The notes beneath the pieces were generated by a model, which saw nothing but the letters and a program-made list of their open reading frames with translations, made no database searches and was not told the origin of the DNA. This document shows positions 40,098 through 54,980 of a stretch of DNA of 64,000 bases, piece by piece (the stretch's first letter is position 1; each line of letters opens with the position of its first letter). Location: assembly GCA_963833225.1 (NCBI GenBank), contig CAWHXD010000017.1, positions 224,001 to 288,000 of the forward strand. Reading direction: 5' to 3'. The stretch is from an uncultured Chloroflexia bacterium. GTDB taxonomy: Bacteria > Chloroflexota > Limnocylindria > Limnocylindrales > CSP1-4. Made by a program: the position numbers and the translations under genes.

Positions 40098-41525
40098 TCA
40101 GCCCGCTGGCGCGGTGTCGCCGCCGGTGGCCGGCGCCGCGGGAGGCACGCTTCCGCCCTGCCCGGGCAGCTCCACCCGGAAGATCGCCCCGCCGGTCTCC
40201 GCGTTGCGCACCCCGATCCGACCGCCGTGCCGCTCGGTGATCCAGCGGGCGATCGCGAGCCCCAGGCCGGTGCCGCCGGACGGTGCGCCGGGCGCTCGAT
40301 AGAACCGGTCGAACACGTGGGCCATGTCCTCGGGCCGCACGCCGGGGCCCTGGTCCGCGACCTCCACCGTCACCATGGTGCCGTCCGTCCGCGCCTGGAC
40401 CGACACGACCCCTCCGCGTGGGCTGTGGCGGACGGCGTTGTCGACGAGGATGGTCACCAGTTGGCGCAGGCGAACTGGATCGCCATCGAGCATAGCCGGC
40501 TCGGGGTCCACCTCGAGGCGGACCAGCCGGTCCTCGGCGAGGCGACCCAGGGAGGTCGCCGCGTCCGACGCCACGTCGCCCAGGTCCAGCGGCATTCGAT
40601 CCAACGGGATCGCCCCCAAATCCGACCGTGCCAGCAGCAGGAGATCGTCCACGAGCAGCGACAGGTGGGTCACCTCCGCCTCGATGTCATCGAGCGCCTC
40701 GGAGGTCGTGCCGAGAGGCTCCTCGCGATGCCGGTTGAGGTGCTCCACGGAGGACCGGATGACGGTCAGCGGTGTCCGCAGCTCGTGCGAGGCGTCGGCG
40801 GCGAACTCGCGCTGGCTCCGAAGCGCGGCACGCTGGGCGGTGAGCGACTCGCGGATCGGCACCAGGGCGCGGCGGGCGTAGAGCGCCCCAAGACCGAACG
40901 ACACGAGGACCACCAGGAACCCACCCCCAAGCAGCACGGCGAGCAGCGCGTTCAGGGTGTTCACCTCGGTGGAGCGGTCCTGGAGCGCCTGGACGTAGTA
41001 CGTGTTGCCGTCCCGGGCGTCGACGCGGTGGGTCAGGATCCGGATCGGGGCGACCGTCGTGGCGCCGCCCGCCTGGATCGTCAGCGTCGAGAGCCGGACA
41101 TCGGTGCGATCGGCGGCGGCTGCGGCGGCGCTCACCCCGTCGGACTCGGGAAGTCCGGCCGGCACGACCTGGCCCCGGTCGCCCAGCAGGACGGGCGTGC
41201 CCGTATCGTCGAACAGGTACAGCAACGTGTTGCCGTTGCCGAACAGGAACCCGAGACCCGGCTGCTCCTGGGTGTCCGGCGTCCCCTCGAGGAACGCGAC
41301 GATCCCCTGCGTCCTGGCCTCCAGCTGGGCAACCGACGCGGTCTCCAGAGCGCGTGCCGTGACCGCGTACAGCGCCGTCGCGAGCACGACCAGGACCGCC
41401 AGCGTGGACAGGCCGCTCCAGGCCACCAGGCGCCAGCGGGTGCGTCGGAGGAGCCGCGCCTGGTCGGCGAGCGCCCCCTGCTCGGCGCCGTCGTCGTCGG
41501 GCGCCAGGCCGACGCCGTCACCCAT
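40098..41525 (-). CDS. sensor histidine kinase (MprB/CiaH-like)
   Basis: Two TM helices, ADASHELRTPL, LVDNAVRH, DQGPG, GTGLGLAI. Confidence 0.93.
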   Translation of the reverse strand: MGDGVGLAPDDDGAEQGALADQARLLRRTRWRLVAWSGLSTLAVLVVLATALYAVTARALETASVAQLEARTQGIVAFLEGTPDTQEQPGLGFLFGNGNTLLYLFDDTGTPVLLGDRGQVVPAGLPESDGVSAAAAAADRTDVRLSTLTIQAGGATTVAPIRILTHRVDARDGNTYYVQALQDRSTEVNTLNALLAVLLGGGFLVVLVSFGLGALYARRALVPIRESLTAQRAALRSQREFAADASHELRTPLTVIRSSVEHLNRHREEPLGTTSEALDDIEAEVTHLSLLVDDLLLLARSDLGAIPLDRMPLDLGDVASDAATSLGRLAEDRLVRLEVDPEPAMLDGDPVRLRQLVTILVDNAVRHSPRGGVVSVQARTDGTMVTVEVADQGPGVRPEDMAHVFDRFYRAPGAPSGGTGLGLAIARWITERHGGRIGVRNAETGGAIFRVELPGQGGSVPPAAPATGGDTAPAG

Positions 41526-42204
41526 CGGACAGCCGGTACCCCACGCCGCGCACCGTTTCGACCTGCGCCCCCGCCGGCCCCAGCTTGGTGCGCAGGTAGT
41601 GGACGTAGGCGTCAACGGCGTTGGGCGTCACCGCGACGCTGAACGGCCACGCGTGATCGAGCAGCTGGTCACGCGTGAGCGCCTGACCGGGGTGGCGGAG
41701 GAGGGCTTCGAGCAGCGAGAACTCGCGGGGGCTGAGATCCACGTTGGCGCCATTCACCGTCACCCGGCGCGCGGCCTCGTCCAGCGTGATCGCACCGGCG
41801 GTCAGCCTCGGTTCTGAGCGTCGGGGTCCGGGCTCGGCCCGTCTCGCGAGGGCTCGCAGGCGCGCCGCAACCTCCGCATAGGCGAACGGCTTGACGACGT
41901 AGTCATCGGCGCCGGCATCGAGACCGGCGACACGGTCGTTGACCGTGTCACGGGCCGTCAGCATCAGGATGCTGACCTCCGCGCCCCGCGCGCCCTGCCT
42001 GCGGATCACGCGCGCGACATCGAGGCCGGACATGTCGGGCAGCCCGATGTCGAGGATCACGGCATCGAGGCCGTCGATCGCGCCGGCGAGCTCGATCCCG
42101 GAGCGACCGTCCGGCGCGTGCTCCACGACATGCCGGTCCTCCTCGAGGAGGCGGGTCAGGGCGCGGGCGAGACGCTGGTCATCCTCGACCAGGAGCAGGT
42201 GCAT
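41518..42204 (-). CDS. OmpR-family response regulator (MprA-like)
   Basis: LLVEDD, ILDIGLP, LTARD..DRVAGLDAGADDY, ETVRGVGY. Confidence 0.95.
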   Translation of the reverse strand: MHLLLVEDDQRLARALTRLLEEDRHVVEHAPDGRSGIELAGAIDGLDAVILDIGLPDMSGLDVARVIRRQGARGAEVSILMLTARDTVNDRVAGLDAGADDYVVKPFAYAEVAARLRALARRAEPGPRRSEPRLTAGAITLDEAARRVTVNGANVDLSPREFSLLEALLRHPGQALTRDQLLDHAWPFSVAVTPNAVDAYVHYLRTKLGPAGAQVETVRGVGYRLSDG

Positions 42205-43374: not shown

Positions 43375-44142
43375 TCAGCCTTTTGTGAGCTGCAGCTGCA
43401 CCTCGAGGATGCCCCGGTCCTGGACGGACAGCACCGCCATCGCCTGGGGCTTGGTGATGCCGTAGTCAGCAAAGGCGATCTCGAGCGAACCCGTGATGGT
43501 GACCACGCCGCTCCCAAGGCGCGCCTGCAGCGGGATCTCCACCGCATTGGTCACGCCGTGGAGGGTCAGGTCGCCGGCCGCGGTGATGTCGATCACGGCG
43601 CCATCCGCGGGCGCAGGTTCGAGGTCGATGGGGGTCGTGAGCGTGAACGTGGCCGTCGGGAACTGCGAGGTCTGGAGCGCCTGCCGGCTCAGCTGACCGT
43701 CGCGCCGGGTTTCGTCGCTCACGAGGCCGGTCAGGTCAGCCGTGAACTCGGCGGCGCTGACGACGGTGCCATCGACCGTGACGGAGCCCGTGACGTCGGG
43801 GGTGCGGCCGACGGCCTCCGTGGCCCCGATGCTGGCGAGGGTCTCCTGGACGCGGTAGCCGACGAACGAGCCTGAGAAGTCGGAGAACGAACCCACCGCC
43901 GGATCGACCGACCAGGTGCCGCCAAGGCCTCCGGCGTCGGTGGTCGCGCTGCCGGACGTCGAGGCTGCCGGGCTGCGGCCCACAAGCGTGACCGGCGCCG
44001 GTCCGGCCGGGCGGAAGAACAGGTACCACGTCCCCGCTGCGGCGCCGATGAGCACGACGACCGCCAGGATGGCCAGAATCGGGGCCGGGCGCGGGCGGCG
44101 GATCTGCGTGTTCACGGACGACACCGGCAGCGACGCGGTCAT
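43375..44142 (-). CDS. membrane-anchored YceI-family protein
   Basis: SFVGYRVQE, SDETRRDGQL, FPTATF, GDLTLHGVT, DYGI. Confidence 0.9.
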   Translation of the reverse strand: MTASLPVSSVNTQIRRPRPAPILAILAVVVLIGAAAGTWYLFFRPAGPAPVTLVGRSPAASTSGSATTDAGGLGGTWSVDPAVGSFSDFSGSFVGYRVQETLASIGATEAVGRTPDVTGSVTVDGTVVSAAEFTADLTGLVSDETRRDGQLSRQALQTSQFPTATFTLTTPIDLEPAPADGAVIDITAAGDLTLHGVTNAVEIPLQARLGSGVVTITGSLEIAFADYGITKPQAMAVLSVQDRGILEVQLQLTKG

Positions 44143-44634: not shown

Positions 44635-45387
44635 TCAGCCTCCGGTGCCGTTGCTCGGAGCGGGCGCGGACTCGGCGGGCCCCGCGGACTCGGCGGGGAT
44701 CCCGGACGCCACGGGCGTGGCCCTGATGTCGTGGCACAGGGTGCAGGTGCTGTCCTCACGCAGCGCATGGTCAATCGGCAGCGCGCCCACCTGTGCGCTC
44801 TGGTGGCACGCGCGGCAGGTGAGGTTCTGCGGGTCGGGATGGGGCTTCGTGGGCGGCGGGGCCGGGTTGGGCTTGTGGCACAGCCAGCACTCGTCCTGGT
44901 TGCGTCCCACCATGCTCGACGGGAGATGCGCCACCGATCCGTGGCAATCGAGGCAGGGCTCGTTGAGCTCGGCGTGCGCCTGGGTGATCGCCGGGCCGTC
45001 CTGGGCGATCTTGTGGCAGTTGAGGCACTCGCTCTCGGCGATGCCGGTGTGACCGGGCGCCTTGCGACCGAGCGTTTCATCCGTGTGACAGGTCAGGCAC
45101 GCGGTCCAGCCCTCGAGCGGGTGCCCGATCGCGGGGATCGGCTTGAGATCCGCGGCGCCACCCCGCTCGTGGCACAGCAGGCAGCTGTTCGAGGTGGGAA
45201 TGTGGGCCAGGCCCATCTGCATCGTCTCGGGTGTCGCCGCGACCGACGGTGCGCTGGTCTCGTCGGCGGTGCCGCGGGCCGGGATGACCTGCATCCAGTC
45301 GAGGACCATCGTGCCGGCCAGGAGAGCCACCACCACGAAGTTCGCCAGGATCAACAGCCGCAGCGTGCGGTCCAGCCGGGATCTCAT
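44635..45387 (-). CDS. membrane-anchored heptaheme c-type cytochrome
   Basis: Seven CxxCH motifs (CLLCH, CLTCH, CLNCH, CLDCH, CWLCH, CRACH, CTLCH); N-terminal TM helix. Confidence 0.9.
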   Translation of the reverse strand: MRSRLDRTLRLLILANFVVVALLAGTMVLDWMQVIPARGTADETSAPSVAATPETMQMGLAHIPTSNSCLLCHERGGAADLKPIPAIGHPLEGWTACLTCHTDETLGRKAPGHTGIAESECLNCHKIAQDGPAITQAHAELNEPCLDCHGSVAHLPSSMVGRNQDECWLCHKPNPAPPPTKPHPDPQNLTCRACHQSAQVGALPIDHALREDSTCTLCHDIRATPVASGIPAESAGPAESAPAPSNGTGG

Positions 45388-45935
45388 GCCATCGCCTCTG
45401 CCATGGGCCGGGTGGGGTCGCCACCTTGCCGCTCGTTGCTGAGAAGGAACGCCATTCGCGCGAGCTCGCGGCGGACAGCCGCGACAGCCGCCGGAATGGC
45501 GCCCGCCACCGCCGGCGAGAGGTGGACGCCGGCCTCGAGGTCCCCGACCTCGATCGCGACCATCGCCACCCGCGTCGGCAGCCAGCCCATGAGCCGGGCC
45601 ACCGCGAGGAGCTCGCCCACGGGCGTCCCCGCTCCCCCATCGGCGGCGCCGCCCGCCGAGCCCATCGCGTGGCCGTCCAGCACCCGGACCTCGCCGGCCG
45701 GCCCGCCGAGGCGCACGGCGTCCACGAGCACGAGGGCGCGCGACTCGCGGACTGGATCGAGCAGGTCGAGGCCGAGCGTCCCACCGTCGACCAGCCGCGT
45801 GCCCGAGGGAACGGTCCCGGAGGCCGCCTCCGCCTGGGCCCGCAGCGCCTCCACGACCCGCACGCCGACCGCATCGTCGCCGAGCATCACGTTGCCGACG
45901 CCGATCACGACCAGCGGAGCCACGGGGTGGTTCAT
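45384..45935 (-). CDS. hydrogenase maturation protease (HyaD/HybD-like)
   Basis: IGVGNVMLGDDAVG, DGGTLG, LVDAV. Confidence 0.9.
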   Translation of the reverse strand: MNHPVAPLVVIGVGNVMLGDDAVGVRVVEALRAQAEAASGTVPSGTRLVDGGTLGLDLLDPVRESRALVLVDAVRLGGPAGEVRVLDGHAMGSAGGAADGGAGTPVGELLAVARLMGWLPTRVAMVAIEVGDLEAGVHLSPAVAGAIPAAVAAVRRELARMAFLLSNERQGGDPTRPMAEAMA

Positions 45936-46741
45936 GACTCGACCCGCTCCAGGAGCTCAGGCCCGCCGTCCCGCGACTCGACGACCTGGTGGCGGGTGGG
46001 GAACTTCCAGCCGCTGATGATGCTGCTGACCAGGCCGTTGTGCTCGATGTGGTCCACGAGCACGCAGCTGTACACGTGGAACAGCGCGATGGCGAGGATC
46101 AGCCACATCGAAAGGTGGTGGATCTGCCGAAGCAGCTGGGGACCCACGAGCTCGCGGAGCCAGGCGAACAGGGTGGCGCCGGGCTCAGCACCCATCAGGC
46201 CGTCGAGCGCGAAGCCGGTGACGGTCTCGACGAGGAGCAGCGCGAACAGGACGAGGTAGGCGGTGGCGGCCAGCTGGTTGTGGCCCAATACCTCCGGGAT
46301 CTCCTTGCGGATGAAGCCGTAGAACGCGCCCTGCCGGAACAGCTCCGTGAACTGGAACTTGGTGGTCGGGATGAACGCCTTCCAGCGAGCGAACCGGTTG
46401 CCGACCAGGAGCCAGTACGTGCGCACCAGCCCGGAGAGCAGGAACGTGAGCGCCGTCAGGATGTGGATGAGACGGACCGTCGACATCACGTTGCCGCCGG
46501 CGGGGATGAGGAACGGGTCGGCGATGTAGCCGCCGGTGACGGACAGGATCACGATGCAGCTCGCCGTGACCCAATGCGTCACCCGCACCGGGATCTGCCA
46601 GACGTACAGCCGGACCCGCTGGTCTGGGTTGGCCACATGGCCGTCATGAGGGACGGCGGCCACCGGGGGCTCAGCGACGGGCCCCACCTCGGACACGGGC
46701 TCCGGCTCGGCCGTTGCGAGGGGTTCGGAGACGGCGGTCAT
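45932..46741 (-). CDS. Ni/Fe-hydrogenase b-type cytochrome subunit (HyaC-like)
   Basis: VWQIPVRVTHW, RLIH, GHNQLA, IHHLSMW...FHVY, SSIISGWK. Confidence 0.92.
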   Translation of the reverse strand: MTAVSEPLATAEPEPVSEVGPVAEPPVAAVPHDGHVANPDQRVRLYVWQIPVRVTHWVTASCIVILSVTGGYIADPFLIPAGGNVMSTVRLIHILTALTFLLSGLVRTYWLLVGNRFARWKAFIPTTKFQFTELFRQGAFYGFIRKEIPEVLGHNQLAATAYLVLFALLLVETVTGFALDGLMGAEPGATLFAWLRELVGPQLLRQIHHLSMWLILAIALFHVYSCVLVDHIEHNGLVSSIISGWKFPTRHQVVESRDGGPELLERVES

Positions 46742-48504
46742 CGGGGCTCCTCGGGAGCAGTGTGGCGGCCCGGGTGGAACCCCGGGGCCTCGAACACATG
46801 GGCTGCGCACGCCGCGCACGGCGCGAACGAATGGATGACCCGGAGGAGCTCCACGGGCCTGGCCGGGTCCACCACCGCAACGCCTTCGAGCGCCGACTCC
46901 ATCGGGCCGGGCATCCCCCGGGCATCTCGCGGGGACGCGTTCCACGTCGACCCGTCGACGACCTGGTAGTGGTCGATCACCGCATCCTTGATCCGCAGCC
47001 AGTGACCGACGGACCCGCGGGGCCCCTCACCCAGCGACCAGCCCTCCACCTCCGACGGCCAGGAGACCGGATCCCACAGCTCAACGCTCGCGATGGCCAC
47101 GTCGCCGGTCGCGAGGCTGGCAGCGAGGTCGTCGAGCCAGCCCGCGAGGGCGGTCGTCACGACATCGAGCTCCACGGCCCGGGCAAGCGTTCGTCCCAGG
47201 GCACCGGTCACCTGCGCCGATGACAGACCCGCGTCGCCGAGCATCCGCCCGAACGACTCCCGGATCTCCGGCCGTCCATTCGCGGTGCCCACGAGGACAC
47301 GCGCCAGGGGGCCCGTCTCCATCACGAGCCCATCGAGCCGGGCGGACTTGACCCACGTGTACTTCTCGCCGGCATTGAGCTGCGAGAGGGGGATCTGCCC
47401 GGTGTACCTGGGCGTCGTCTCGCCCTCGGCGGGCGGGCGGAGCGAGTCGTCGACGTCGCTGTAGGCGTACCAGGCGTGTGAGACGGACTCCCCGACCGAT
47501 GCCTCGGCCACCGGCTTGGGTCCCTCGAGGTTGCCGCCGACCAGCCGTCCGCTCGAGAACAGGCGAGCCGGATCCCGGCTGGCGTCATCGGGGAACTCGC
47601 CGCTGCACAGGTAGTTGCCCGGCCCCGCCCCGATGGTGAGCCATTCCGGGTACGCCGCCATCAGCAGGGCGGTGTCCGGCAGCACGACCTGGTCGACGAA
47701 GGTCCGAGCGCTCCGCACGAGCGTCCGCATCAGCGCGATGCCCTCGTCGCTCAGGGCGAGGGGAGCGTTGTGATCCGGCACCTGGGGGTGCTGCCGGGTC
47801 TTGGCCACGTCGGGGCCACCCCACGGCGGCGCGAGCGCCATGCCGCCGACGAGGAAGGTCTGCGGGTGGGCCTCCTTGCCCGACAGCAGCGTGTGGATCC
47901 GCATGAAGTCCCGCTGCCAGTCCAGCGCGTCGAGGGCGTGGGTCATCAACAGCAGGCTCTGTTCCGGGCTCAGCAGATAGGCCGGGTGACCTGCCCAGGC
48001 CGGCGCGAACGGGCCCGGCTGCGAGGACGACACGACGGCAGCCAGGCGATCCCGGATCGACGCGAAGACCTCTGGCGTGGCTCCCGGCCAGGCGCTGCGA
48101 CCCTGGGCGAGCCGCGCGGTCGCTCCGGGGTCCGCGGTGATGGCCGCCGTCACGTCGACCCACTCGGGCAGGGCTCGCTGGTAGAGCGTCATCACGTGGT
48201 CGCGGACGAGCAGCGCGCCGCCGAGGACGTTGCGGATCAGGCGCGCGTTGGCCGGGATCTCGATCCCCAGCGCCTGCTCGACCGCGCGCACGGACGCGAG
48301 CGCGTGGACGCCGGTGCACGTCCCGCAGATGCGCTGCGCGAGCAGCCACGCGTCGCGCGGGTCGCGGCCGCGGAGCACCGACTCCATGCCGCGGAACATC
48401 GTGGCCGAGGCCCAGGCCGCGGACACGGAGCCGGCGGTGACGTCGGCCTCGACGCGGAGCTGGCCACCGAGGCGGGTGACGGGGTCGATGACGATGCGGG
48501 CCAT
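46738..48504 (-). CDS. group 1 [NiFe]-hydrogenase-like large subunit (atypical motifs)
   Basis: RICGTC...H, ETGPLAR, EGPRG..GHW, TWNASPRD, PCAACAAH plus cleavable tail. Confidence 0.92.
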   Translation of the reverse strand: MARIVIDPVTRLGGQLRVEADVTAGSVSAAWASATMFRGMESVLRGRDPRDAWLLAQRICGTCTGVHALASVRAVEQALGIEIPANARLIRNVLGGALLVRDHVMTLYQRALPEWVDVTAAITADPGATARLAQGRSAWPGATPEVFASIRDRLAAVVSSSQPGPFAPAWAGHPAYLLSPEQSLLLMTHALDALDWQRDFMRIHTLLSGKEAHPQTFLVGGMALAPPWGGPDVAKTRQHPQVPDHNAPLALSDEGIALMRTLVRSARTFVDQVVLPDTALLMAAYPEWLTIGAGPGNYLCSGEFPDDASRDPARLFSSGRLVGGNLEGPKPVAEASVGESVSHAWYAYSDVDDSLRPPAEGETTPRYTGQIPLSQLNAGEKYTWVKSARLDGLVMETGPLARVLVGTANGRPEIRESFGRMLGDAGLSSAQVTGALGRTLARAVELDVVTTALAGWLDDLAASLATGDVAIASVELWDPVSWPSEVEGWSLGEGPRGSVGHWLRIKDAVIDHYQVVDGSTWNASPRDARGMPGPMESALEGVAVVDPARPVELLRVIHSFAPCAACAAHVFEAPGFHPGRHTAPEEPR

Positions 48505-48505
48505 C

Positions 48506-49741
48506 TCAGCGCTCCTCGGTCATCGGAGCGTCGGGGGCGGCCACGCCCTCCGGATCGGACGGGGCCGGACTGGTCGTCTCGGGCGGGGCGGGATCAATCG
48601 TCTCGGGGGTGGCCGCATCGACAGCCTCCGCGACCGCGGCTCCCTCGGCGGCGGCGAGCGCTTCACGGCGCTCGTTCCGCGCGCGTCGCCGGTACCTCAC
48701 GCTCATGCCTACCGCGTGCGCGGCGGCCACCGCGCCGATACCGCCGACCATCGCGGCGCCCACGACATCCGTGGTCAGGTTCGGGAGGAATGGCACCGGG
48801 GACGGGAGACGGCGATACGCGGGGCCCATCTGTTCCCAGAAGTTGGGGGTCACGCAGCCGATGCAGCCGTGGCCGGCGCGAATGTTCCAGCTCACGCCCT
48901 CGCCGTAGCGAACGACCGGGCAGTTGCCCATGCTCTCGGGGCCCTTGCAGCCGACCTTGTACAGGCACCAGCCACGCTGGGCGCCCTCGTCGCCCCAGGC
49001 GAGGGCGAACTCGCCGAACTCGAAGTGGGGCCGGCGCTCGCACTCGTTGTGGATCAGGTTGCCGTAGGCGGCGAGGGGCCGGCTGGCGAGGTCGAGCGCC
49101 GGCCACTCGTTGAACGTGAGGTAGTGGACGATGACCGACACCAGGTTGACGACATTCATCGGGCAGCCGGGCAGGGCGATGAGCTTGGTATCGCCGGCGA
49201 TGCCACGGATCCCGTGCGCCTCCGTGAGACCACCTGGCGCCGCCGGCGCACCACCGTCCACGGCGCACGAGCCCACGGCGATGACCGCGAGGGCGCCCGC
49301 GATGACCTCCCGGGCGACGTCGCGAACGGGCCGGCCGCCAACCAGGCAATAGGCACCCGAGGCACCGTCGGGGATCGATCCCTCCACGACCGCGACGTAC
49401 CCCTTCGGGTAGCGCTCCATGGCGGTGGCCCGGGCCGCGTCCGCCCCGGCGCCGGAGGTCGCCATCAGCGACTGGTGGTATTCGAGTGACAGCGTGTCGA
49501 GCAGCAGCGTCTCGATCGTTGGATCCGGGCTGCGCAGGAACGATTCGGTGTTGCCGCTGCACGTCTGGCCCCGGACCCAGATCACGGGCAGGCGCGGCGC
49601 GGTCTCGAGCGCCGCCGCGATCCGTGGCGCGTACGACGCCGGCAGCGCGAGCGCCGCGGCCATCGCCGAGGAGAGCTTGATGAACGTTCGACGGGTCATC
49701 CCGCGCGCCAGCAGGGCGGCGTACAGACCGGCGTCGTCCAT
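48506..49741 (-). CDS. group 1 [NiFe]-hydrogenase small subunit, Tat-exported, C-terminal TM anchor
   Basis: TRRTFIK Tat motif, CSGNTESF, GSCA, PGCP, HNEC.RR, WCLYKVGCKGP, GHGCIGC. Confidence 0.93.
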   Translation of the reverse strand: MDDAGLYAALLARGMTRRTFIKLSSAMAAALALPASYAPRIAAALETAPRLPVIWVRGQTCSGNTESFLRSPDPTIETLLLDTLSLEYHQSLMATSGAGADAARATAMERYPKGYVAVVEGSIPDGASGAYCLVGGRPVRDVAREVIAGALAVIAVGSCAVDGGAPAAPGGLTEAHGIRGIAGDTKLIALPGCPMNVVNLVSVIVHYLTFNEWPALDLASRPLAAYGNLIHNECERRPHFEFGEFALAWGDEGAQRGWCLYKVGCKGPESMGNCPVVRYGEGVSWNIRAGHGCIGCVTPNFWEQMGPAYRRLPSPVPFLPNLTTDVVGAAMVGGIGAVAAAHAVGMSVRYRRRARNERREALAAAEGAAVAEAVDAATPETIDPAPPETTSPAPSDPEGVAAPDAPMTEER

Positions 49742-49997: not shown

Positions 49998-52106
49998 TCA
50001 GGCCACCCGGGCCTCCTCGACGGGTGCCTCGAACCCCGGCTCCTCGACAGGATCGTCGCGCCGGTAGGGCACATCCACGACCACGGTGTGCGGCCGCCCC
50101 AGCAGGATCGTTCGCAGTCGCCGCGCCGACTGGTTGTACAGCACCCGCTCCCACCAGTGGCGGGCAACGTACTCAGGGACCACCACGAAGGTGATCGGCT
50201 CCAGCCGATCCGGCGGCCAGGCACGGTCAAGGACGTCGAGGTAGGCGACCAGCGGACCGGCGAGGGCCCGGTATGGGCTCTCCACGATGACCAGCGGCAC
50301 GCCGGGAACCTGGCGCTCCCAGCGGGTCCGCATCTTCGCGGAATGCTCGGGGTCCACGCTGATGTAGACGGCGCTCACGTCGTCCGTGATGGATCGGGCG
50401 ACGTTGACGGCCCGCACGACCGCACGGTTGAGCGACGGGACCGGAACGATCGCGCGGTCCAGGCGGGTGGGTGGCCCGACGACGTAGTCCGGGCGGATCG
50501 CCAGCTGCGTTGCCGAGGCGGCGTACTGCCTCCGGATGAACAGCATCGCGACCACCATGGTTGGGACCAGGACCGCCACGATCCACGCCCCGGCCTCGAA
50601 CTTCTCGCTCAGCACGATGATCAGGACGACAAAGGTCAGCATTGCCCCGAAGGCGTTGATCCCCAGTCGCCACCACCAGCCCGGGACGCGGCCACGCAGC
50701 CAGTGGCGGACCATGCCGGCCTGGCTCAGGGTGAAGCACACGAACACGCCAACCGAGTACAGCGGGATGAGGCTCGTGGTGTTGCCCCTGAAGGCGACGT
50801 ACAGGCCGGCGGCGATCCCGGCCAGCAGCACGATGCCCCAGCTGTAGGCGAGGCGATCACCGCGAAACGAGAACTGGCGCGGGAAGTAGCCGTCCTGGGC
50901 CAGGATCGCGGCCAGCCGCGGGAAGGCGTTGAAGCTGGTGTTCGCCGCGAGGAACAGGATGAGCGCGGTCGCCAGCTGGAACACGTAGAACGGCGGGCTC
51001 CCGGCGCCGAATGCGGTCTGGGCCACCAGCGCAATGACCGTCGGTCCGCCGGAGAGCGGCTCGGACGGCAGGATGTCGTAGGCGCGCGCGATCACGGTGG
51101 CCCCGATGAAGATGACCCCCAGCAGGGCTGCCATGGCGAGCATCGTGTTGCCGGCGTTCCTGGCTTCCGGCGGTTTGAATGCCGGGACGCCGTTGGCGAT
51201 CGCCTCAACGCCGGTCAGCGCGACAGAGCCGCTCGCGAACGCGCGCAGGATGAGGAACAGGCCGAGCGGCTCCGTCCCGAGTGACACGATCTCGGGTGGG
51301 TGGGGCAGCGGGTCAACCGCGCCGGTCATGATCCGGAGCACACCGTTGATCACGATGAACAGGGCCATCGAGACGAACAGGTACGTCGGGACGGCAAAGA
51401 TGTTCCCCGACTCGCGGAGTCCACGCAGATTGGCGATCGTGATCAGGGCGATGACGCCGACGGCGACCTCGATGCGGACCAGCTCCAGGCCAGGCAGGAT
51501 GGAGATCAGCTGGTCCATCGCCGACGAGGTGGAGACCGCCACCGTCATCACGTAGTCGATCAGCAGCGCCGCGGCGGCCACGAGCCCGAGGATCGGGCGC
51601 AGCTCCTGGCGGGCGACCGCGTAGGCGCCGCCTCCCCCGGGAAACGCGTTGCAGACCTGCCGGTAGGAGATCGCGACCACCGCCAACAGGATCGAGATCG
51701 CGATCGCGACCTCGATGGAGACCAGCAGCGCACCCGCACCCGCGAGCACCAGGACGCGCAGGATCTCCTCCGTGGCGTAGGCGGAGGACGAGATGGCATC
51801 GGAGCTGAAGATCGGCAGCGCGAGCCGCTTGGACAGGCGTTCGCCAATCTCCTCTTCGGACGCGAGTGGGCGCCCGATCAGCCACGCCTTCCAGCGGAGA
51901 AGGGACCGGCCGAACCCTGACCTTGGCAGCGACGCCTCCGGCTTGGCGACCAGCTGGTTGGGTCCCGTATATCGGAAGTACGGCGAGTGTGGCCGATCGA
52001 CGCGCACGCGGCGGTCGCCCGGCTTGCGCCCGGTGATGGGTCGGCGACCGCGGATCACGGGTGGGACCTCAGGATGGCTGGATGCGGATATTGGGCTTGG
52101 CTGCAT
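49998..52106 (-). CDS. APC-family permease, KimA/YdaO-like K+ transporter
   Basis: FSSDAISSSAYATEEIL, GGGAY, DYVMTVAVS, NLRGLRESG, ALTGVEAIANGV, VESPYR, LYNQSA. Confidence 0.88.
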   Translation of the reverse strand: MQPSPISASSHPEVPPVIRGRRPITGRKPGDRRVRVDRPHSPYFRYTGPNQLVAKPEASLPRSGFGRSLLRWKAWLIGRPLASEEEIGERLSKRLALPIFSSDAISSSAYATEEILRVLVLAGAGALLVSIEVAIAISILLAVVAISYRQVCNAFPGGGGAYAVARQELRPILGLVAAAALLIDYVMTVAVSTSSAMDQLISILPGLELVRIEVAVGVIALITIANLRGLRESGNIFAVPTYLFVSMALFIVINGVLRIMTGAVDPLPHPPEIVSLGTEPLGLFLILRAFASGSVALTGVEAIANGVPAFKPPEARNAGNTMLAMAALLGVIFIGATVIARAYDILPSEPLSGGPTVIALVAQTAFGAGSPPFYVFQLATALILFLAANTSFNAFPRLAAILAQDGYFPRQFSFRGDRLAYSWGIVLLAGIAAGLYVAFRGNTTSLIPLYSVGVFVCFTLSQAGMVRHWLRGRVPGWWWRLGINAFGAMLTFVVLIIVLSEKFEAGAWIVAVLVPTMVVAMLFIRRQYAASATQLAIRPDYVVGPPTRLDRAIVPVPSLNRAVVRAVNVARSITDDVSAVYISVDPEHSAKMRTRWERQVPGVPLVIVESPYRALAGPLVAYLDVLDRAWPPDRLEPITFVVVPEYVARHWWERVLYNQSARRLRTILLGRPHTVVVDVPYRRDDPVEEPGFEAPVEEARVA

Positions 52107-52366
52107 CAGCAGATGGGCTCGACAACGACGTCAATGCGATCATCGCGGGCAGTGGGGCGGGCTAGCAGCCGGACGCCGGCCTCGAGCGCCGGACGTCTCT
52201 GGCGCTCCAGGACCTCATCGCCGCACGCGATCCCAGCCACCAGGACGCGACGTGCCCCGTGGGCGGCGACGAGGAGGATCGCCTCGCGAACGAGGCGCTC
52301 CTCCCCGCGCCACGGCTCCGACAGGGACGCGGGGGGCACGGGGGCAGGATGCCGCTCACTGATCAC
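52106..52366 (-). CDS. small hypothetical protein
   Basis: Stop overlaps the permease start; plausible composition. Confidence 0.55.
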   Translation of the reverse strand: MISERHPAPVPPASLSEPWRGEERLVREAILLVAAHGARRVLVAGIACGDEVLERQRRPALEAGVRLLARPTARDDRIDVVVEPIC

Positions 52367-52420
52367 CGGACGAGCATCCGGCGGGGCACCAAGAGGGATC
52401 GGCAGCGAACGGGCCTCGGA

Positions 52421-52438
52421 TCCCTAAGGATTCCCTAA
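52421..52438. promoter_or_regulatory. 11-bp-period direct repeat TCCCTAA, candidate KdpE-like binding site
   Basis: TCCCTAAggatTCCCTAA at the end of the regulator gene, upstream of the permease unit. Confidence 0.5.
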
Positions 52439-53190
52439 AGACTCGTCCCGGGCGGCTCAGCATCTTCGGCAACCTCGGCGATCCGGTAGCCCACACCGGG
52501 CTCGGTCACGATCAGACCGTCGAGACGGTGATCAGGATCCGCGGCCGCGAGCTTCCGGCGCAGCTGGCTGACATGGACGTAGACGTAGCTGTCCTCACCC
52601 TGGTACGCCTCGCCCCAGACGGCACGGAGCAGACGGCCCTTGGTGACCACCCGTCCTCGATGGGTCAGGAGCACCCGCAGCAGCTCGAACTCCCTGGGCG
52701 TGAGATCGAGGGCGCGGCCACCGATCCGGACCGCGTGGCCCGCGACGTCGAGCACGAGGGGCCCCGCGGTGACGCGACCCGCCTGGTCGCCGGCCGGGCC
52801 TGCGGCACGCCGTAGCGCCACGCGGATGCGCGCGCGCAGCTCGTCGACCCCGAATGGCTTGGTCACGTAGTCGTCAGCACCGCGGTCGAGAGCCTCAACC
52901 TTCTCGTGCTCCTCGTATCGTCCGGACAGGATCACGATCGGTGTGGCGGCCTCGCGCCGGATAGCGGACACCACGCGTAGCCCATCCATGTCCGGCAGGC
53001 CGAGGTCAAGCAGCACGAGGTCCGGTCGTCGAGCCGCCCAGCGTTCGAGCGCCGTCCGCCCATCCGCCGCCTCCGCGACCGCGTAGCCTCCGGCCACCAG
53101 CTCGCGAACCAGGGCCGCCCGGGTCTCGGTGTCGTCTTCGACGACCAGGATCGTCGCACCCGAGCCGATGGGCACCGGGGGCCGCATCAC
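52435..53190 (-). CDS. kdpE: KdpE-like response regulator
   Basis: LLDLGLPDMDG, KVEALDRGADDYVTKPF, LLRAVWG, VTEPGVGY. Confidence 0.85.
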   Translation of the reverse strand: MMRPPVPIGSGATILVVEDDTETRAALVRELVAGGYAVAEAADGRTALERWAARRPDLVLLDLGLPDMDGLRVVSAIRREAATPIVILSGRYEEHEKVEALDRGADDYVTKPFGVDELRARIRVALRRAAGPAGDQAGRVTAGPLVLDVAGHAVRIGGRALDLTPREFELLRVLLTHRGRVVTKGRLLRAVWGEAYQGEDSYVYVHVSQLRRKLAAADPDHRLDGLIVTEPGVGYRIAEVAEDAEPPGTSL

Positions 53191-54755
53191 GCCGTCGCCT
53201 CCGCCGGCGACGGTTCGGCGAGGCCGTCCGGCACGCGTGTTGCCGGCAGGTCGATATCCACCGCAAGCCCACCAAGCTCGCTGCGGCGGGCGGCCACGCG
53301 CCCGCCGGTGGCCTCGACCAGCCCGCGCGCCACCGCGAGGCCGATCCCAGTCCCTTCCCGCGACGACCACCGGCGATTCGGGACCCGGTAGAACTTCTCG
53401 AACAGGCGCGGCAGCAGCTCGTCCGGCACGCCCGGCCCATCGTCCTCGATCGTGAGCCGGACCCGGTCGGGGTCGAGGTCCCGGGCCGTCACCCGGATCC
53501 GCGCTCCATCGGGCGTGTACTTCACCGCGTTGTCGAGGACGTTGCCAGCGGCTTCGTCCACGAATACCGGGTCCGCGGACACCGGGACTGCCCGGAGGTC
53601 GACGTCCAGGCGGCGGCCCGCGAGGCGGGTCCGCGTGCTCTCGACCGAGCGGGTCAGCAGATCGTCGAGATCGAACAGCTCACGCACCGGTCGCAGGGCC
53701 CCCGCCTCGATCCGCGACAGGTCCAGGAGATTTGTCACGAGTCGGTTGAGGTAGGCGACCTCCCGCTCGATGGCGTCGGCGCTCGCCTGCCGGTCCATAT
53801 CCGACAGCGCGCCGTCGGGCCGCAGGCTCCCCGCTGCCGCGCGGATCGTCGCCAGCGGCGTCCGCAGGTCATGCGAGACCGATTGGAGGAGCGCGGACTT
53901 GAGGGCGTCACTCTGGCGGGCCACCTCCGCCGCGCGTGTCTGGTCCTCGGACCGCTCGACGGCGATCGCCTGCCCCACCTGGCCCGCGGTCGCCGCCAGC
54001 AGCCGGGTCTGGATGCCGTCCGGCTCGCCCAGCGACCGGGCGCGCGTCGCCCAGATCGATCCGAGCGGCTCGCCGCCGGCCTCGATGCGGATGCGGTAGG
54101 CGTCACTGGGCGCCGAGGCGCGGATCATTCCCGGACGCTGGACGAGCACCCATCGCGGCGGCTGGTCATCGGGCAGGCGCTGGAGCACGCGAACGCGTCC
54201 GGGCTGGACAGGCGGGCGGCCCTCGCCGCTGTCGGCCGCCACGGTCTCCGTCGCCGGATCCGGGCCGATCCCGATCCAGGCACGTTCGAGATCGGCCTCC
54301 GCAGCGAGGACCTCGACGATCCCACGCAGCGCGCCGCGCATCGTGGTTCGACTGGCCAGCGAGCGGCTGACCCCGAACAGGGCGCGAGCCTCGCGCTCAC
54401 GGGCCGTGGCCGCCTCGGCACGCTCGCGCTGCGTGGCGGCCAGCCGGCCGACAACCACCCCGACGAACAGCAACAGCACGGTGCTGAGCAGCACGCCCGG
54501 GTCATGGATCAGGAAGGTGTAGCGAGGCTCGGTGAACCAGAAGTTGTAGAGCGCCGCGGAGCCCATCGCGGTCACGATCGCCCCGTCGGTGCCGACCAGC
54601 AGCGCCACGAACACCACGGCGACGAGATAGACGGCCGACGCGTTGTCGACGCCCAGGGCTCCCTCGAGCAGGGCGACGGCCGCCGTCGCCAGCGCGAGCG
54701 AGATGCCCGCTGCGGCGAGCAGCCGGACCAGGCGGCGGAGCGCAGTGGGCATCAT
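53187..54755 (-). CDS. KdpD-like sensor kinase (DUF4118 TM + GAF + HK; no N-terminal KdpD/Usp domains)
   Basis: YNFWFTEPRYTF, LLQSVSHDLRTPL, NLLDLSRIEAG, GTGIGLAV. Confidence 0.88.
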   Translation of the reverse strand: MMPTALRRLVRLLAAAGISLALATAAVALLEGALGVDNASAVYLVAVVFVALLVGTDGAIVTAMGSAALYNFWFTEPRYTFLIHDPGVLLSTVLLLFVGVVVGRLAATQRERAEAATAREREARALFGVSRSLASRTTMRGALRGIVEVLAAEADLERAWIGIGPDPATETVAADSGEGRPPVQPGRVRVLQRLPDDQPPRWVLVQRPGMIRASAPSDAYRIRIEAGGEPLGSIWATRARSLGEPDGIQTRLLAATAGQVGQAIAVERSEDQTRAAEVARQSDALKSALLQSVSHDLRTPLATIRAAAGSLRPDGALSDMDRQASADAIEREVAYLNRLVTNLLDLSRIEAGALRPVRELFDLDDLLTRSVESTRTRLAGRRLDVDLRAVPVSADPVFVDEAAGNVLDNAVKYTPDGARIRVTARDLDPDRVRLTIEDDGPGVPDELLPRLFEKFYRVPNRRWSSREGTGIGLAVARGLVEATGGRVAARRSELGGLAVDIDLPATRVPDGLAEPSPAEATA

Positions 54756-54980
54756 CGTTGAAGGTCGTCCGGCAGTCGGGCCGGAGCGCGTGGAGGTCGA
54801 GCGGCCCCCGGTATCCATGAGCTGGCGCGCTCCGTGCGCGTGCCGCGCAGCATATGGCACGACGGCCGACGATGAACTGGGCGTTCGGGCGCCCTGGGCC
54901 TGACCGGTCGGTTGCCGGTCGTTGCCGCCACGCAAGAGCCCCTCCTGGCAACCCGGAGGGGCTCGTTCGTGCATGAGAGA

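Follow-up and report, generated by a model that had tools for sequence, protein, structure and literature searches.

A 64-kb window from an uncultured Chloroflexia bacterium (CSP1-4), comprising positions 224,001-288,000 of contig CAWHXD010000017.1 (GCA_963833225.1), carries at 46738-48504 the gene for a large (catalytic) subunit of a group 1 [NiFe] hydrogenase, here called P0001; "the window" means this whole stretch, and coordinates are counted from its first nucleotide. The family and the fold of this protein are known; the Glu and the canopy Asp that are usually taken as defining are absent from it. P0001 belongs to an old, separate lineage of group 1 [NiFe] hydrogenases that is under constraint, the Glu-less clade, in which the residues around the metal core have been rebuilt stepwise while the core itself was kept. 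Regarding its function, we infer, with a probability of around 0.55, a working but kinetically altered H2-oxidizing enzyme, exported by the twin-arginine translocation (Tat) system and bound to the membrane, with a rerouted proton path.

The Large Subunit and Its Motifs

The reading frame is open solely on the minus strand, with stops interrupting the plus-strand frame, and its product matches PF00374 with 539.4 bits (Pfam cut-off 25.8) over residues 38-569, in such a way that positions 1-508 of the 508 in the profile are covered. The top relatives of solved structure are the enzymes of Allochromatium vinosum (3myr_B, 500.7 bits) and E. coli Hyd-1 (432.5 bits). An AlphaFold2 model with a predicted template modelling (TM) score of 0.84 gave Foldseek TM values of 0.87/0.91 to 3myr and of 0.84-0.92 to the D. 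vulgaris and E. coli enzymes; it is weak at residues 9-14, 210-245 and 563-588, the first and last of these stretches having a predicted local distance difference test (pLDDT) below 50. It is certain, as regards family and fold, that the gene encodes an intact [NiFe] hydrogenase large subunit. The NCBIfam equivalog cut-offs were not reached, with 436.8 bits against 1101 for Hyd-1 and 436.3 against 969 for Hyd-2.

E. coli HyaB was used as the alignment reference and supplies the usual residue numbering. P0001 reads DPVTRLGGQ at residues 7-15, RICGTCTGVH at 58-67, DHVMTLY at 102-108 and EGPRG at 493-497, and its C-terminal motif, HSFAPCAACAAH (which contains SFAPCAACAAH), occupies residues 558-569 and is followed by a 19-aa tail past H569. 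With respect to HyaB, the changes are E28 to G13, H30 to Q15, E73 to Q, V78 to T62, H122 to T106, L126 to R110 and D574 to A561, and the residues C76, C79, C576, C579, D118, H119, P508, R509 and H582 are retained. The metal ligands of P0001 (C60, C63, C563 and C566), its canopy Arg (R496) and H569 are conserved clade-wide, and the terminal ligand is Cys by its TGC codons, not selenocysteine. As signature residues we list G13, Q15, T62, R101, T106, R110, V499, D517, G518 and A561. The codons of three of them were read back as GGT at 48466-48468 (G13), CAG at 48460-48462 (Q15) and GCG at 46822-46824 (A561). Logan contigs from four public runs, 90-99% alike and giving partial cover, span the codons of residues 13, 15, 62, 517 and 561, and no difference at these codons appears among those listed, 27 further differences being unlisted; these contigs may lend the key codons of P0001 slight backing.

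Phylogeny and Distribution of the Glu-less Clade

Among the 120 best database relatives of P0001, which are 54-100% identical to it, none of the 118 that include the N-terminus has the Glu. An alignment of 184 large subunits showed the same pattern, as the E28 column holds G (99), N (15), D (3) or S (2) in the clade, in such a way that Glu is found in 0 of 119 aligned members against 51 of 51 canonical representatives. The loss of the Glu is far beyond chance. The clade is monophyletic both in a FastTree phylogeny of the 184 sequences (120 tips, support 100) and in a quick IQ-TREE run with 56 chosen sequences (27/27 tips, Shimodaira-Hasegawa-like approximate likelihood ratio support 100); in the latter it is sister to a canonical paralog type of the same family (support 80). 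In both trees the nearest canonical relatives are the Chloroflexota "type 3" sequences, then those of Anaerolineae/Thermoflexus and then those of Roseiflexus and Acidobacteria, the clade being nested inside the canonical sequences of Chloroflexota, Roseiflexus and Acidobacteria.

The "type 3" canonical operon (RACGVC, RIEGH, SFDPC) is the closest sister of the Glu-less clade. It was found in the family at loci L033, L034 and L037 (genomes G001, G010 and G007), with further "type 3" loci at L062, L063, L066-L068, L071 and L080, and it has no copy in the window's genome. Its cytochrome b is 51-56% identical to the Glu-less one, against 39-44% for the other canonical type. The lineage arose by duplication from the canonical Roseiflexus/Acidobacteria (group 1f) type, within one Chloroflexota family.

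Glu-less loci make up 21 of the first 40 loci listed among species-representative genomes, all 21 from metagenome-assembled genomes titled Chloroflexota, Chloroflexi, Chloroflexia or Limnocylindrales. Besides the window's copy, 20 other loci at species level have an open reading frame. When an even sample of the class was searched, matches of Glu-less strength were detected in 19 of 401 genomes, all of one family (18 of 137 genomes, the window's uncounted) and of 3 of 65 genera. The literature searched, which did not extend to supplementary hydrogenase tables, does not describe any Glu-less clade of group 1.

Two further observations concern single sequences. The clade copy at L054 (the G003:C62 record) looks broken: the C-terminal Cys motif is missing from its 622-aa large-subunit frame, neither a cytochrome b nor a protease gene lies behind it, and the seven-haem cytochrome alongside is reduced to a fragment. 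Isolated group-1-like sequences without the Glu were also found (P0155, P0158, P0177, P0187, P0197, P0210, P0214, P0215 and P0241), having D, H, Q, G, N, A or S at this site and in some cases lacking also a Cys ligand or the canopy Arg. The state of the Glu site changed at least seven times on the 184-sequence tree.

Remodeling around the Metal Core

Several positions that are invariant in canonical enzymes are lost in the clade, namely E28, H30 (partly), V78, L126, Y206 and D574; H122 is lost too, its conservation in canonical sequences being merely 86%. In turn, the clade has conserved residues of its own, T62 (92%), R101, G494, V499 (97%), D517 (119/119) and G/A518, and a specific insertion at around 224-250 with invariant W228 and H239. 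These changes can be ordered on the tree. The loss of Glu28 and the replacements of V530 by Asp and of P531 by Gly or Ala belong to the stem, being common to all members including the basal ones; L512V, V78T, H117R and the loss of L126 came later; and Asp574 was lost last, as the basal L053, L059, L064 and L073 still have SFDPC. The D574 column of the clade contains A in 77 sequences, N in 19, S in 11, D in 7, G in 2 and P in 1.

An offset of 12 in the numbering places G13, T62 and R110 on E25, V74 and L122 in the D. fructosovorans enzyme. These three residues are drawn together around the active site in Fig. 4B of PMC11023054 (this and the other papers marked below are cited from excerpts), where V74 and L122 are the gate residues of the gas channel and E25 is the proton gate. 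In the clade, the Val of the gas-channel gate is replaced by Thr and the Leu is variable. With an offset of 17, R496, V499, D517, G518 and S519 correspond to Arg479, Leu482, Val500, Pro501 and Ser502 of the D. vulgaris Miyazaki enzyme, which we take to be the hydrogen-bond partners of the cyanides and the wall of the CO ligand, an assignment for which no paper was found. The canonical consensus at these five columns (R, L, V, P, S/T) fits the assumed pocket, and S499C, an active-site mutant of the D. fructosovorans enzyme in the PDB, falls on S519 (offset 20).

Selection and Evolutionary Rates

The selection acting on the large subunit was also studied. For this, the 56 columns with a conservation of 90% or more among 51 canonical sequences were followed in the clade, where 43 of them stay at that level, including C76, C79, C576, C579, R509, H119 and E57. 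The ratio of nonsynonymous to synonymous substitution rates (dN/dS) was 0.17-0.18 at a dS of 0.53-0.55 in the two closest genome pairs; ratios beyond these pairs were not used, as dS reaches a plateau at around 0.8-0.9. In five genomes having both operons, the dN values of the Glu-less large subunit and of the canonical paralog were 0.098/0.024, 0.226/0.083, 0.238/0.131, 0.288/0.153 and 0.395/0.092. Identities to the window's genome fall from 84 to 54% for the Glu-less large subunit, from 90 to 75% for cytochrome b and from 91 to 68% for cytochrome c, whereas the large subunit of the canonical paralog operon roughly equals the small subunit in conservation and surpasses cytochrome b in all pairs. 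Selection remains purifying, but it is either less strict or has shifted to other sites, and the conservation of the new residues themselves supports that the function was changed rather than lost.

These data bear on a preliminary description of the gene, made from the sequence of the window, which had proposed a divergent lineage instead of simple decay. The motif substitutions on which it was based are real, as all the strings that it quoted were found in P0001; the relatives in which it had suggested looking for a canonical Glu have none (0/119); and the shared substitutions of a clade with full support, with a dN/dS of about 0.17, uphold the divergent lineage. It had missed several changes that covary with the loss of the Glu, namely V78T, the replacement of L126, V530D, and the His-less protease and seven-haem cytochrome treated below. 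We give virtually no weight to the possibility that the gene is a decaying copy or an artefact of assembly or sequencing, which for the window's copy is refuted. A related copy, L054, does look broken, but the open frame in the window and 20 other loci, the clade-wide substitutions, the dN/dS of 0.17, the conserved order of the operon and the independent contigs, with no difference at the key codons among those listed, all speak against decay or artefact.

Operon and Partner Proteins

The genes surrounding that of P0001 are collected in Table 1. The first five are tightly packed, with ATGA overlaps or a 1-nt gap, and their order is unchanged in 10 of 10 loci of the same genus, so the five-gene operon reported in the preliminary description is indeed intact. 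The features of a membrane-bound group 1 uptake operon are present, that is, a Tat-exported small subunit, a cytochrome b, the 19-aa extension of the large subunit and a protease gene, although His-less.

Table 1. Genes of the Glu-less hydrogenase operon and its downstream neighbor in the window.
Product	Position	Strand	Length (aa)	Profile matches and features
Small subunit	48506..49741	minus	411	TIGR00391, 375.7 bits (cut-off 179.5)
Large (catalytic) subunit, group 1 [NiFe] hydrogenase, Glu-less type (P0001)	46738..48504	minus	588	PF00374
Hydrogenase-type cytochrome b	45932..46741	minus	269	PF01292; TIGR02125, 130.8 bits (cut-off 121.5)
HyaD/HybD-type maturation endopeptidase	45384..45935	minus	183	TIGR00072, 111.7 bits (cut-off 47.45)
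Membrane-anchored seven-haem c-type cytochrome	44635..45387	minus	250	PF14522, PF09699, PF14537
YceI-like protein	43375..44142	minus		PF04264, 76.2 bits; N-terminal helix; start MTASLPV

The small subunit combines a twin-arginine signal (RRTFIKL) with a membrane helix at its C-terminus, and 12 of the 13 ligand positions of its iron-sulfur (FeS) clusters match those of Hyd-1 and Hyd-2. At the remaining one, C20 of mature HyaA, the second Cys of the proximal cluster, it has Asn (TCSGN, residue 64, codon 49550-49552). Among the small subunits compared, which include those of loci L001 and L019-L039, eleven Glu-less ones have Asn (8), Asp (1) or Glu (2) at this site, and the canonical and "type 3" ones have Asn in 11 of 11 cases, while E. 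coli HyaA and HybO have Cys. A residue other than Cys is therefore found in all three group 1 paralog types of the family, which suggests, by sequence, a proximal cluster held by three Cys and an Asn, Asp or Glu across the lineage, independently of the Glu-less trait. The cytochrome b gene starts with the ATG at 46741, overlapping the stop of the large-subunit gene, and its product conserves His at HyaC positions 22, 63, 125, 184 and 198.

The maturation protease has an Ala aligned with His93 of HybD (codon 45630-45632) and an Asp at the Glu16 site, both being positions that we take to bind the metal in HybD. None of 17 Glu-less operons has an equivalent of His93, which all 21 canonical ones keep, E. 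coli HyaD and HybD among them, and the protease changes fast, with a dN/dS of 0.36-0.80. Regarding the extension that such a protease would remove, the basal large subunits P0121, L081 and G077 stop at the C-terminal His and have none; at L122 (G077:C1:2108511-2110277) TGA TGA follows directly after this His, and the L081 locus gave no protease match.

The seven-haem cytochrome has an N-terminal helix and seven CxxCH motifs, with the same spacing in 16 of 16 cytochromes examined. Its gene lies downstream of the operon in 19 of 21 Glu-less loci, in contrast to 0 of 19 canonical loci; of the two exceptions, one is at a contig edge and the other is the broken-looking L054. One canonical locus of Acidobacteriaceae has an unrelated ten-haem open reading frame farther downstream. 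In 24 genomes of the same genus, which are close kin and not independent cases, a strong match to the cytochrome was found in 19 of the 20 that have the Glu-less gene, the 20th, with the broken copy, having a fragment only, and no match was found in the four without that gene. A paralog of the cytochrome is encoded at G000:C19:383038-383547, 39% identical over the first 172 residues and around 8 kb from the hypF-hypE cluster (C19:370432-375364); similar paralogs are present in most related genomes.

This arrangement bears on the sensing role that the preliminary description had considered. In an H2 sensor like the regulatory hydrogenases, signalling to a regulator, the very low turnover to be expected from the loss of the proton gate would be tolerable, and two-component genes lie upstream at 52435-54974. 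However, a permease gene separates these from the operon, the sequence groups with the group 1 uptake enzymes, and a Tat-exported small subunit with a membrane helix, a cytochrome b anchor, a seven-haem cytochrome, a C-terminal extension and an own protease are at odds with a sensor, which we hold to be very improbable.

Other Hydrogenases and Oxidases of the Genome

The assembly has 3.89 Mb and is 86% complete. The canonical paralog proposed for search in the preliminary description is present, as a group 1 operon on contig 6 with RIEGH, HFYHLHALDW and SFDPC, and the same genome encodes two group 3 hydrogenases and two haem-copper oxidases; RuBisCO gave no match in this 86% complete assembly.

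The enzyme could also work in the H2-producing direction or as a redox valve, with electrons from the seven-haem cytochrome or quinol, the gas gate and the proton path setting the bias. Residues 74 and 122 control H2 egress and hence catalytic bias in the studied enzymes (PMC11023054, excerpt), and both are changed here; a dedicated multihaem cytochrome could also supply the electrons. On the other side, proton reduction equally needs proton delivery, for which there is no Glu gate, the excerpt of PMC6776052 presents the nearest relatives (group 1f) as enzymes of aerobic uptake, and the genome has the two haem-copper oxidases mentioned above. We consider either role clearly unlikely.

Proposed Function and Mechanism

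In the reading that we favor, H2 oxidation with a rerouted proton path, the NiFe site would still be assembled and H2 would be split on the outer face of the membrane. The three FeS clusters would hand the electrons on to cytochrome b and the quinone pool, to the seven-haem cytochrome, or to both. Protons would no longer exit by the Glu next to the terminal Cys; they would leave by a cavity filled with water, which Gly13 and Ala561 open and Thr62 lines, with the clade-invariant Asp517 possibly acting as a new carboxylate. The expected phenotype would be a slower turnover and a faster recovery from O2. In the excerpt of PMC8020662, E28 is called the universal proton gate, and the E28Q variant of Hyd-1 is rescued by water or hydroxide entering near the relay; the cavity formed by Gly13, Ala561 and Thr62 could hold such water permanently. 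A hydrophilic residue at 74 speeds reactivation after O2 at some cost in activity (PMC11023054, excerpt), which fits an aerobe that also keeps a fast canonical enzyme.

A more specific version can be advanced only tentatively. According to it, this would be an enzyme without the "universal" Glu gate, in which the acid/base function has moved to the invariant Asp in the CO pocket, and which has a polar gas gate, a protease independent of the His and a dedicated seven-haem cytochrome. If true, the clade would represent a second solution to proton-coupled H2 activation or, alternatively, a NiFe site shifted to a different chemistry or ligand set.

Several data weigh against the favored function or its mechanism. 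Dementin and co-workers reportedly found that changing this Glu to Gln or Ala nearly abolishes turnover. The dN of the Glu-less large subunit is 1.8-4.3 times that of the canonical paralog in the five genomes with both operons, and, the protease aside, the large subunit is the least conserved structural protein of its operon in all 10 comparisons with the window's genome, except for the nearest genome, where mhc is slightly lower; this faster change looks like a relaxed constraint on catalysis. With a protease that lacks His93 and changes fast, standard nickel-dependent maturation is not assured. When the maturation genes hypA-F were looked for, as the preliminary description had suggested, a hypF-hypC-hypD-hypE cluster was found, but hypA gave a weak match only, adjoining a group 3 enzyme, and hypB was not found in the 86% complete genome, which is not evidence of its absence. 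The P0001 gene is in no RNA run listed, which says nothing about its expression. The placement of Asp517 and Thr62 relative to the metals is putative, with a pLDDT of the model below 50 at residues 9-14 and 563-588. Finally, a check for convergence found Asp at position 530 in 0 of 13 other odd sequences, so that the isolated Glu-less sequences give no convergent support to a relocated carboxylate.

Part of these data would fit better a metal site that is assembled but no longer works mainly as a hydrogenase, serving another small substrate or redox reaction, or acting as a scaffold for the FeS/cytochrome b/seven-haem module. With Gly, Thr, Ala and Asp in place of Glu, Val, Asp and Val, the pocket would gain in width and polarity. 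The strongly changed residues all surround the active site; the large subunit outpaces the small subunit, cytochrome b, cytochrome c and the canonical paralog; the protease has lost its His; the canonical group 1 and the two group 3 enzymes could cover H2 metabolism; and the gain of the seven-haem cytochrome represents a new electron-transfer setting. By contrast, the four Cys, Arg509, Asp118 and His119 are kept over 120 sequences down to 51% identity, which disfavors a pure scaffold because the loss of those ligands would then be expected. Moreover, the operon has no extra catalytic subunit, and we know of no alternative substrate for the NiFe(CN)2CO site. On balance, another chemistry or a scaffold seems to us unlikely, and is the strongest of the alternatives.

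Comparison with Known Hydrogenases

The enzymes of Roseiflexus and Acidobacterium are named group 1f, of aerobic uptake, in PMC6776052, and the group 1f label is used for the Roseiflexus/Acidobacteria/Frankia synton-3 type in PMC6776052 and PMC11879354 (both as excerpts). By similarity, the HydDB assignment of P0001 would probably be group 1f, a label taken here from the naming of its nearest relatives in these papers. The likeness extends to the sizes of the large subunit (588 aa against around 573) and the small subunit (411 against 410-420), to the Tat signal, the cytochrome b and the dedicated protease, and to hypB, not found here and reported as lacking for Frankia group 1f in the excerpted literature. 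The clade differs from group 1f in having no Glu28, Thr for Val78, Asp for Val530 and neither Leu126 nor Asp574, as well as in a C-terminal extension of 19-21 aa against around 15, the insertion at around 224-250, a protease without His93 and the extra seven-haem cytochrome c.

The fold and the metal ligands are also those of E. coli Hyd-1, known with E28Q/E28D and V78 variants, and of the D. fructosovorans enzyme with its V74 and L122 mutants, and the natural changes of the clade hit the sites mutated in the laboratory, E28 (E25), V78 (V74), L126 (L122) and D574. Nevertheless, each laboratory mutant has one change, which cripples or retunes an otherwise canonical enzyme, whereas in the clade all of them are found together and fixed, in addition to Asp517, Val499, Gly518 and Arg101.

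The canopy Asp is naturally lost, with Ser in its place, in the [NiFeSe] hydrogenases of group 1a (PMC8020662, excerpt), and some members of the clade have Ser or Asn there. For this reason, and because the basal members of the clade keep the Asp, its replacement, which the preliminary description had correctly noticed in P0001, is weaker evidence than was claimed. P0001 differs from the [NiFeSe] enzymes in its Cys terminal ligand, and matches them with 229 bits at most. These enzymes keep the Glu, unlike P0001.

An outward-facing hydrogenase coupled to a multihaem cytochrome of the c3/c7 type (PF14522, PF14537) is also found in group 1b with cytochrome c3 of sulfate reducers; the cytochrome of P0001, in contrast, has seven haems, is anchored to the membrane and is encoded in the operon alongside cytochrome b. 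Two other assignments were dismissed. Regulatory hydrogenases (group 2b) are cytoplasmic and kinase-linked, without Tat signal, C-terminal extension or protease, and this group was ruled out, as Tat signal, extension, protease, cytochrome b and membrane anchor are all present here. The high-affinity groups 1h, 1l and 1m (Hhy/Hyl/Hhm) have no Tat signal or cytochrome b, and the 1h structure 5aa5_C matched P0001 with only 96.1 bits, over residues 473-569. The layout of the operon also differs from those described for groups 1l and 1m, which are 1h-like (PMC9561532).

The clade has persisted under purifying selection without the Glu that is called the universal proton gate in PMC8020662 (excerpt), and it represents a natural experiment in which proton exit from the NiFe site, outer-sphere control of O2 tolerance and catalytic bias, and substrate recognition by the maturation protease can be tested. 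A hydrophilic residue at 74, treated as a non-natural route to O2 tolerance in the excerpt of the review PMC11023054, occurs naturally in it. Metagenomic surveys that score such genes as ordinary group 1 uptake enzymes may over-count or mis-assign H2 oxidation in soil and sediment Chloroflexota.

Neighboring Genes

The gene for the YceI-like protein lies around 490 nt downstream of the cytochrome c gene and is downstream in 7 of 10 loci of the same genus, a possible sixth gene of the operon. A cytochrome b561 homologue accompanies yceI in E. coli, so the YceI-like protein may act with the cytochrome b. Upstream of the operon (49998-54974), the minus strand encodes a 702-aa permease-family protein (PF13520) and, upstream of the permease gene, a response regulator (52435-53370) and a KdpD-like sensor kinase (53187-54974). 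A further two-component pair is found at 40098-42204.

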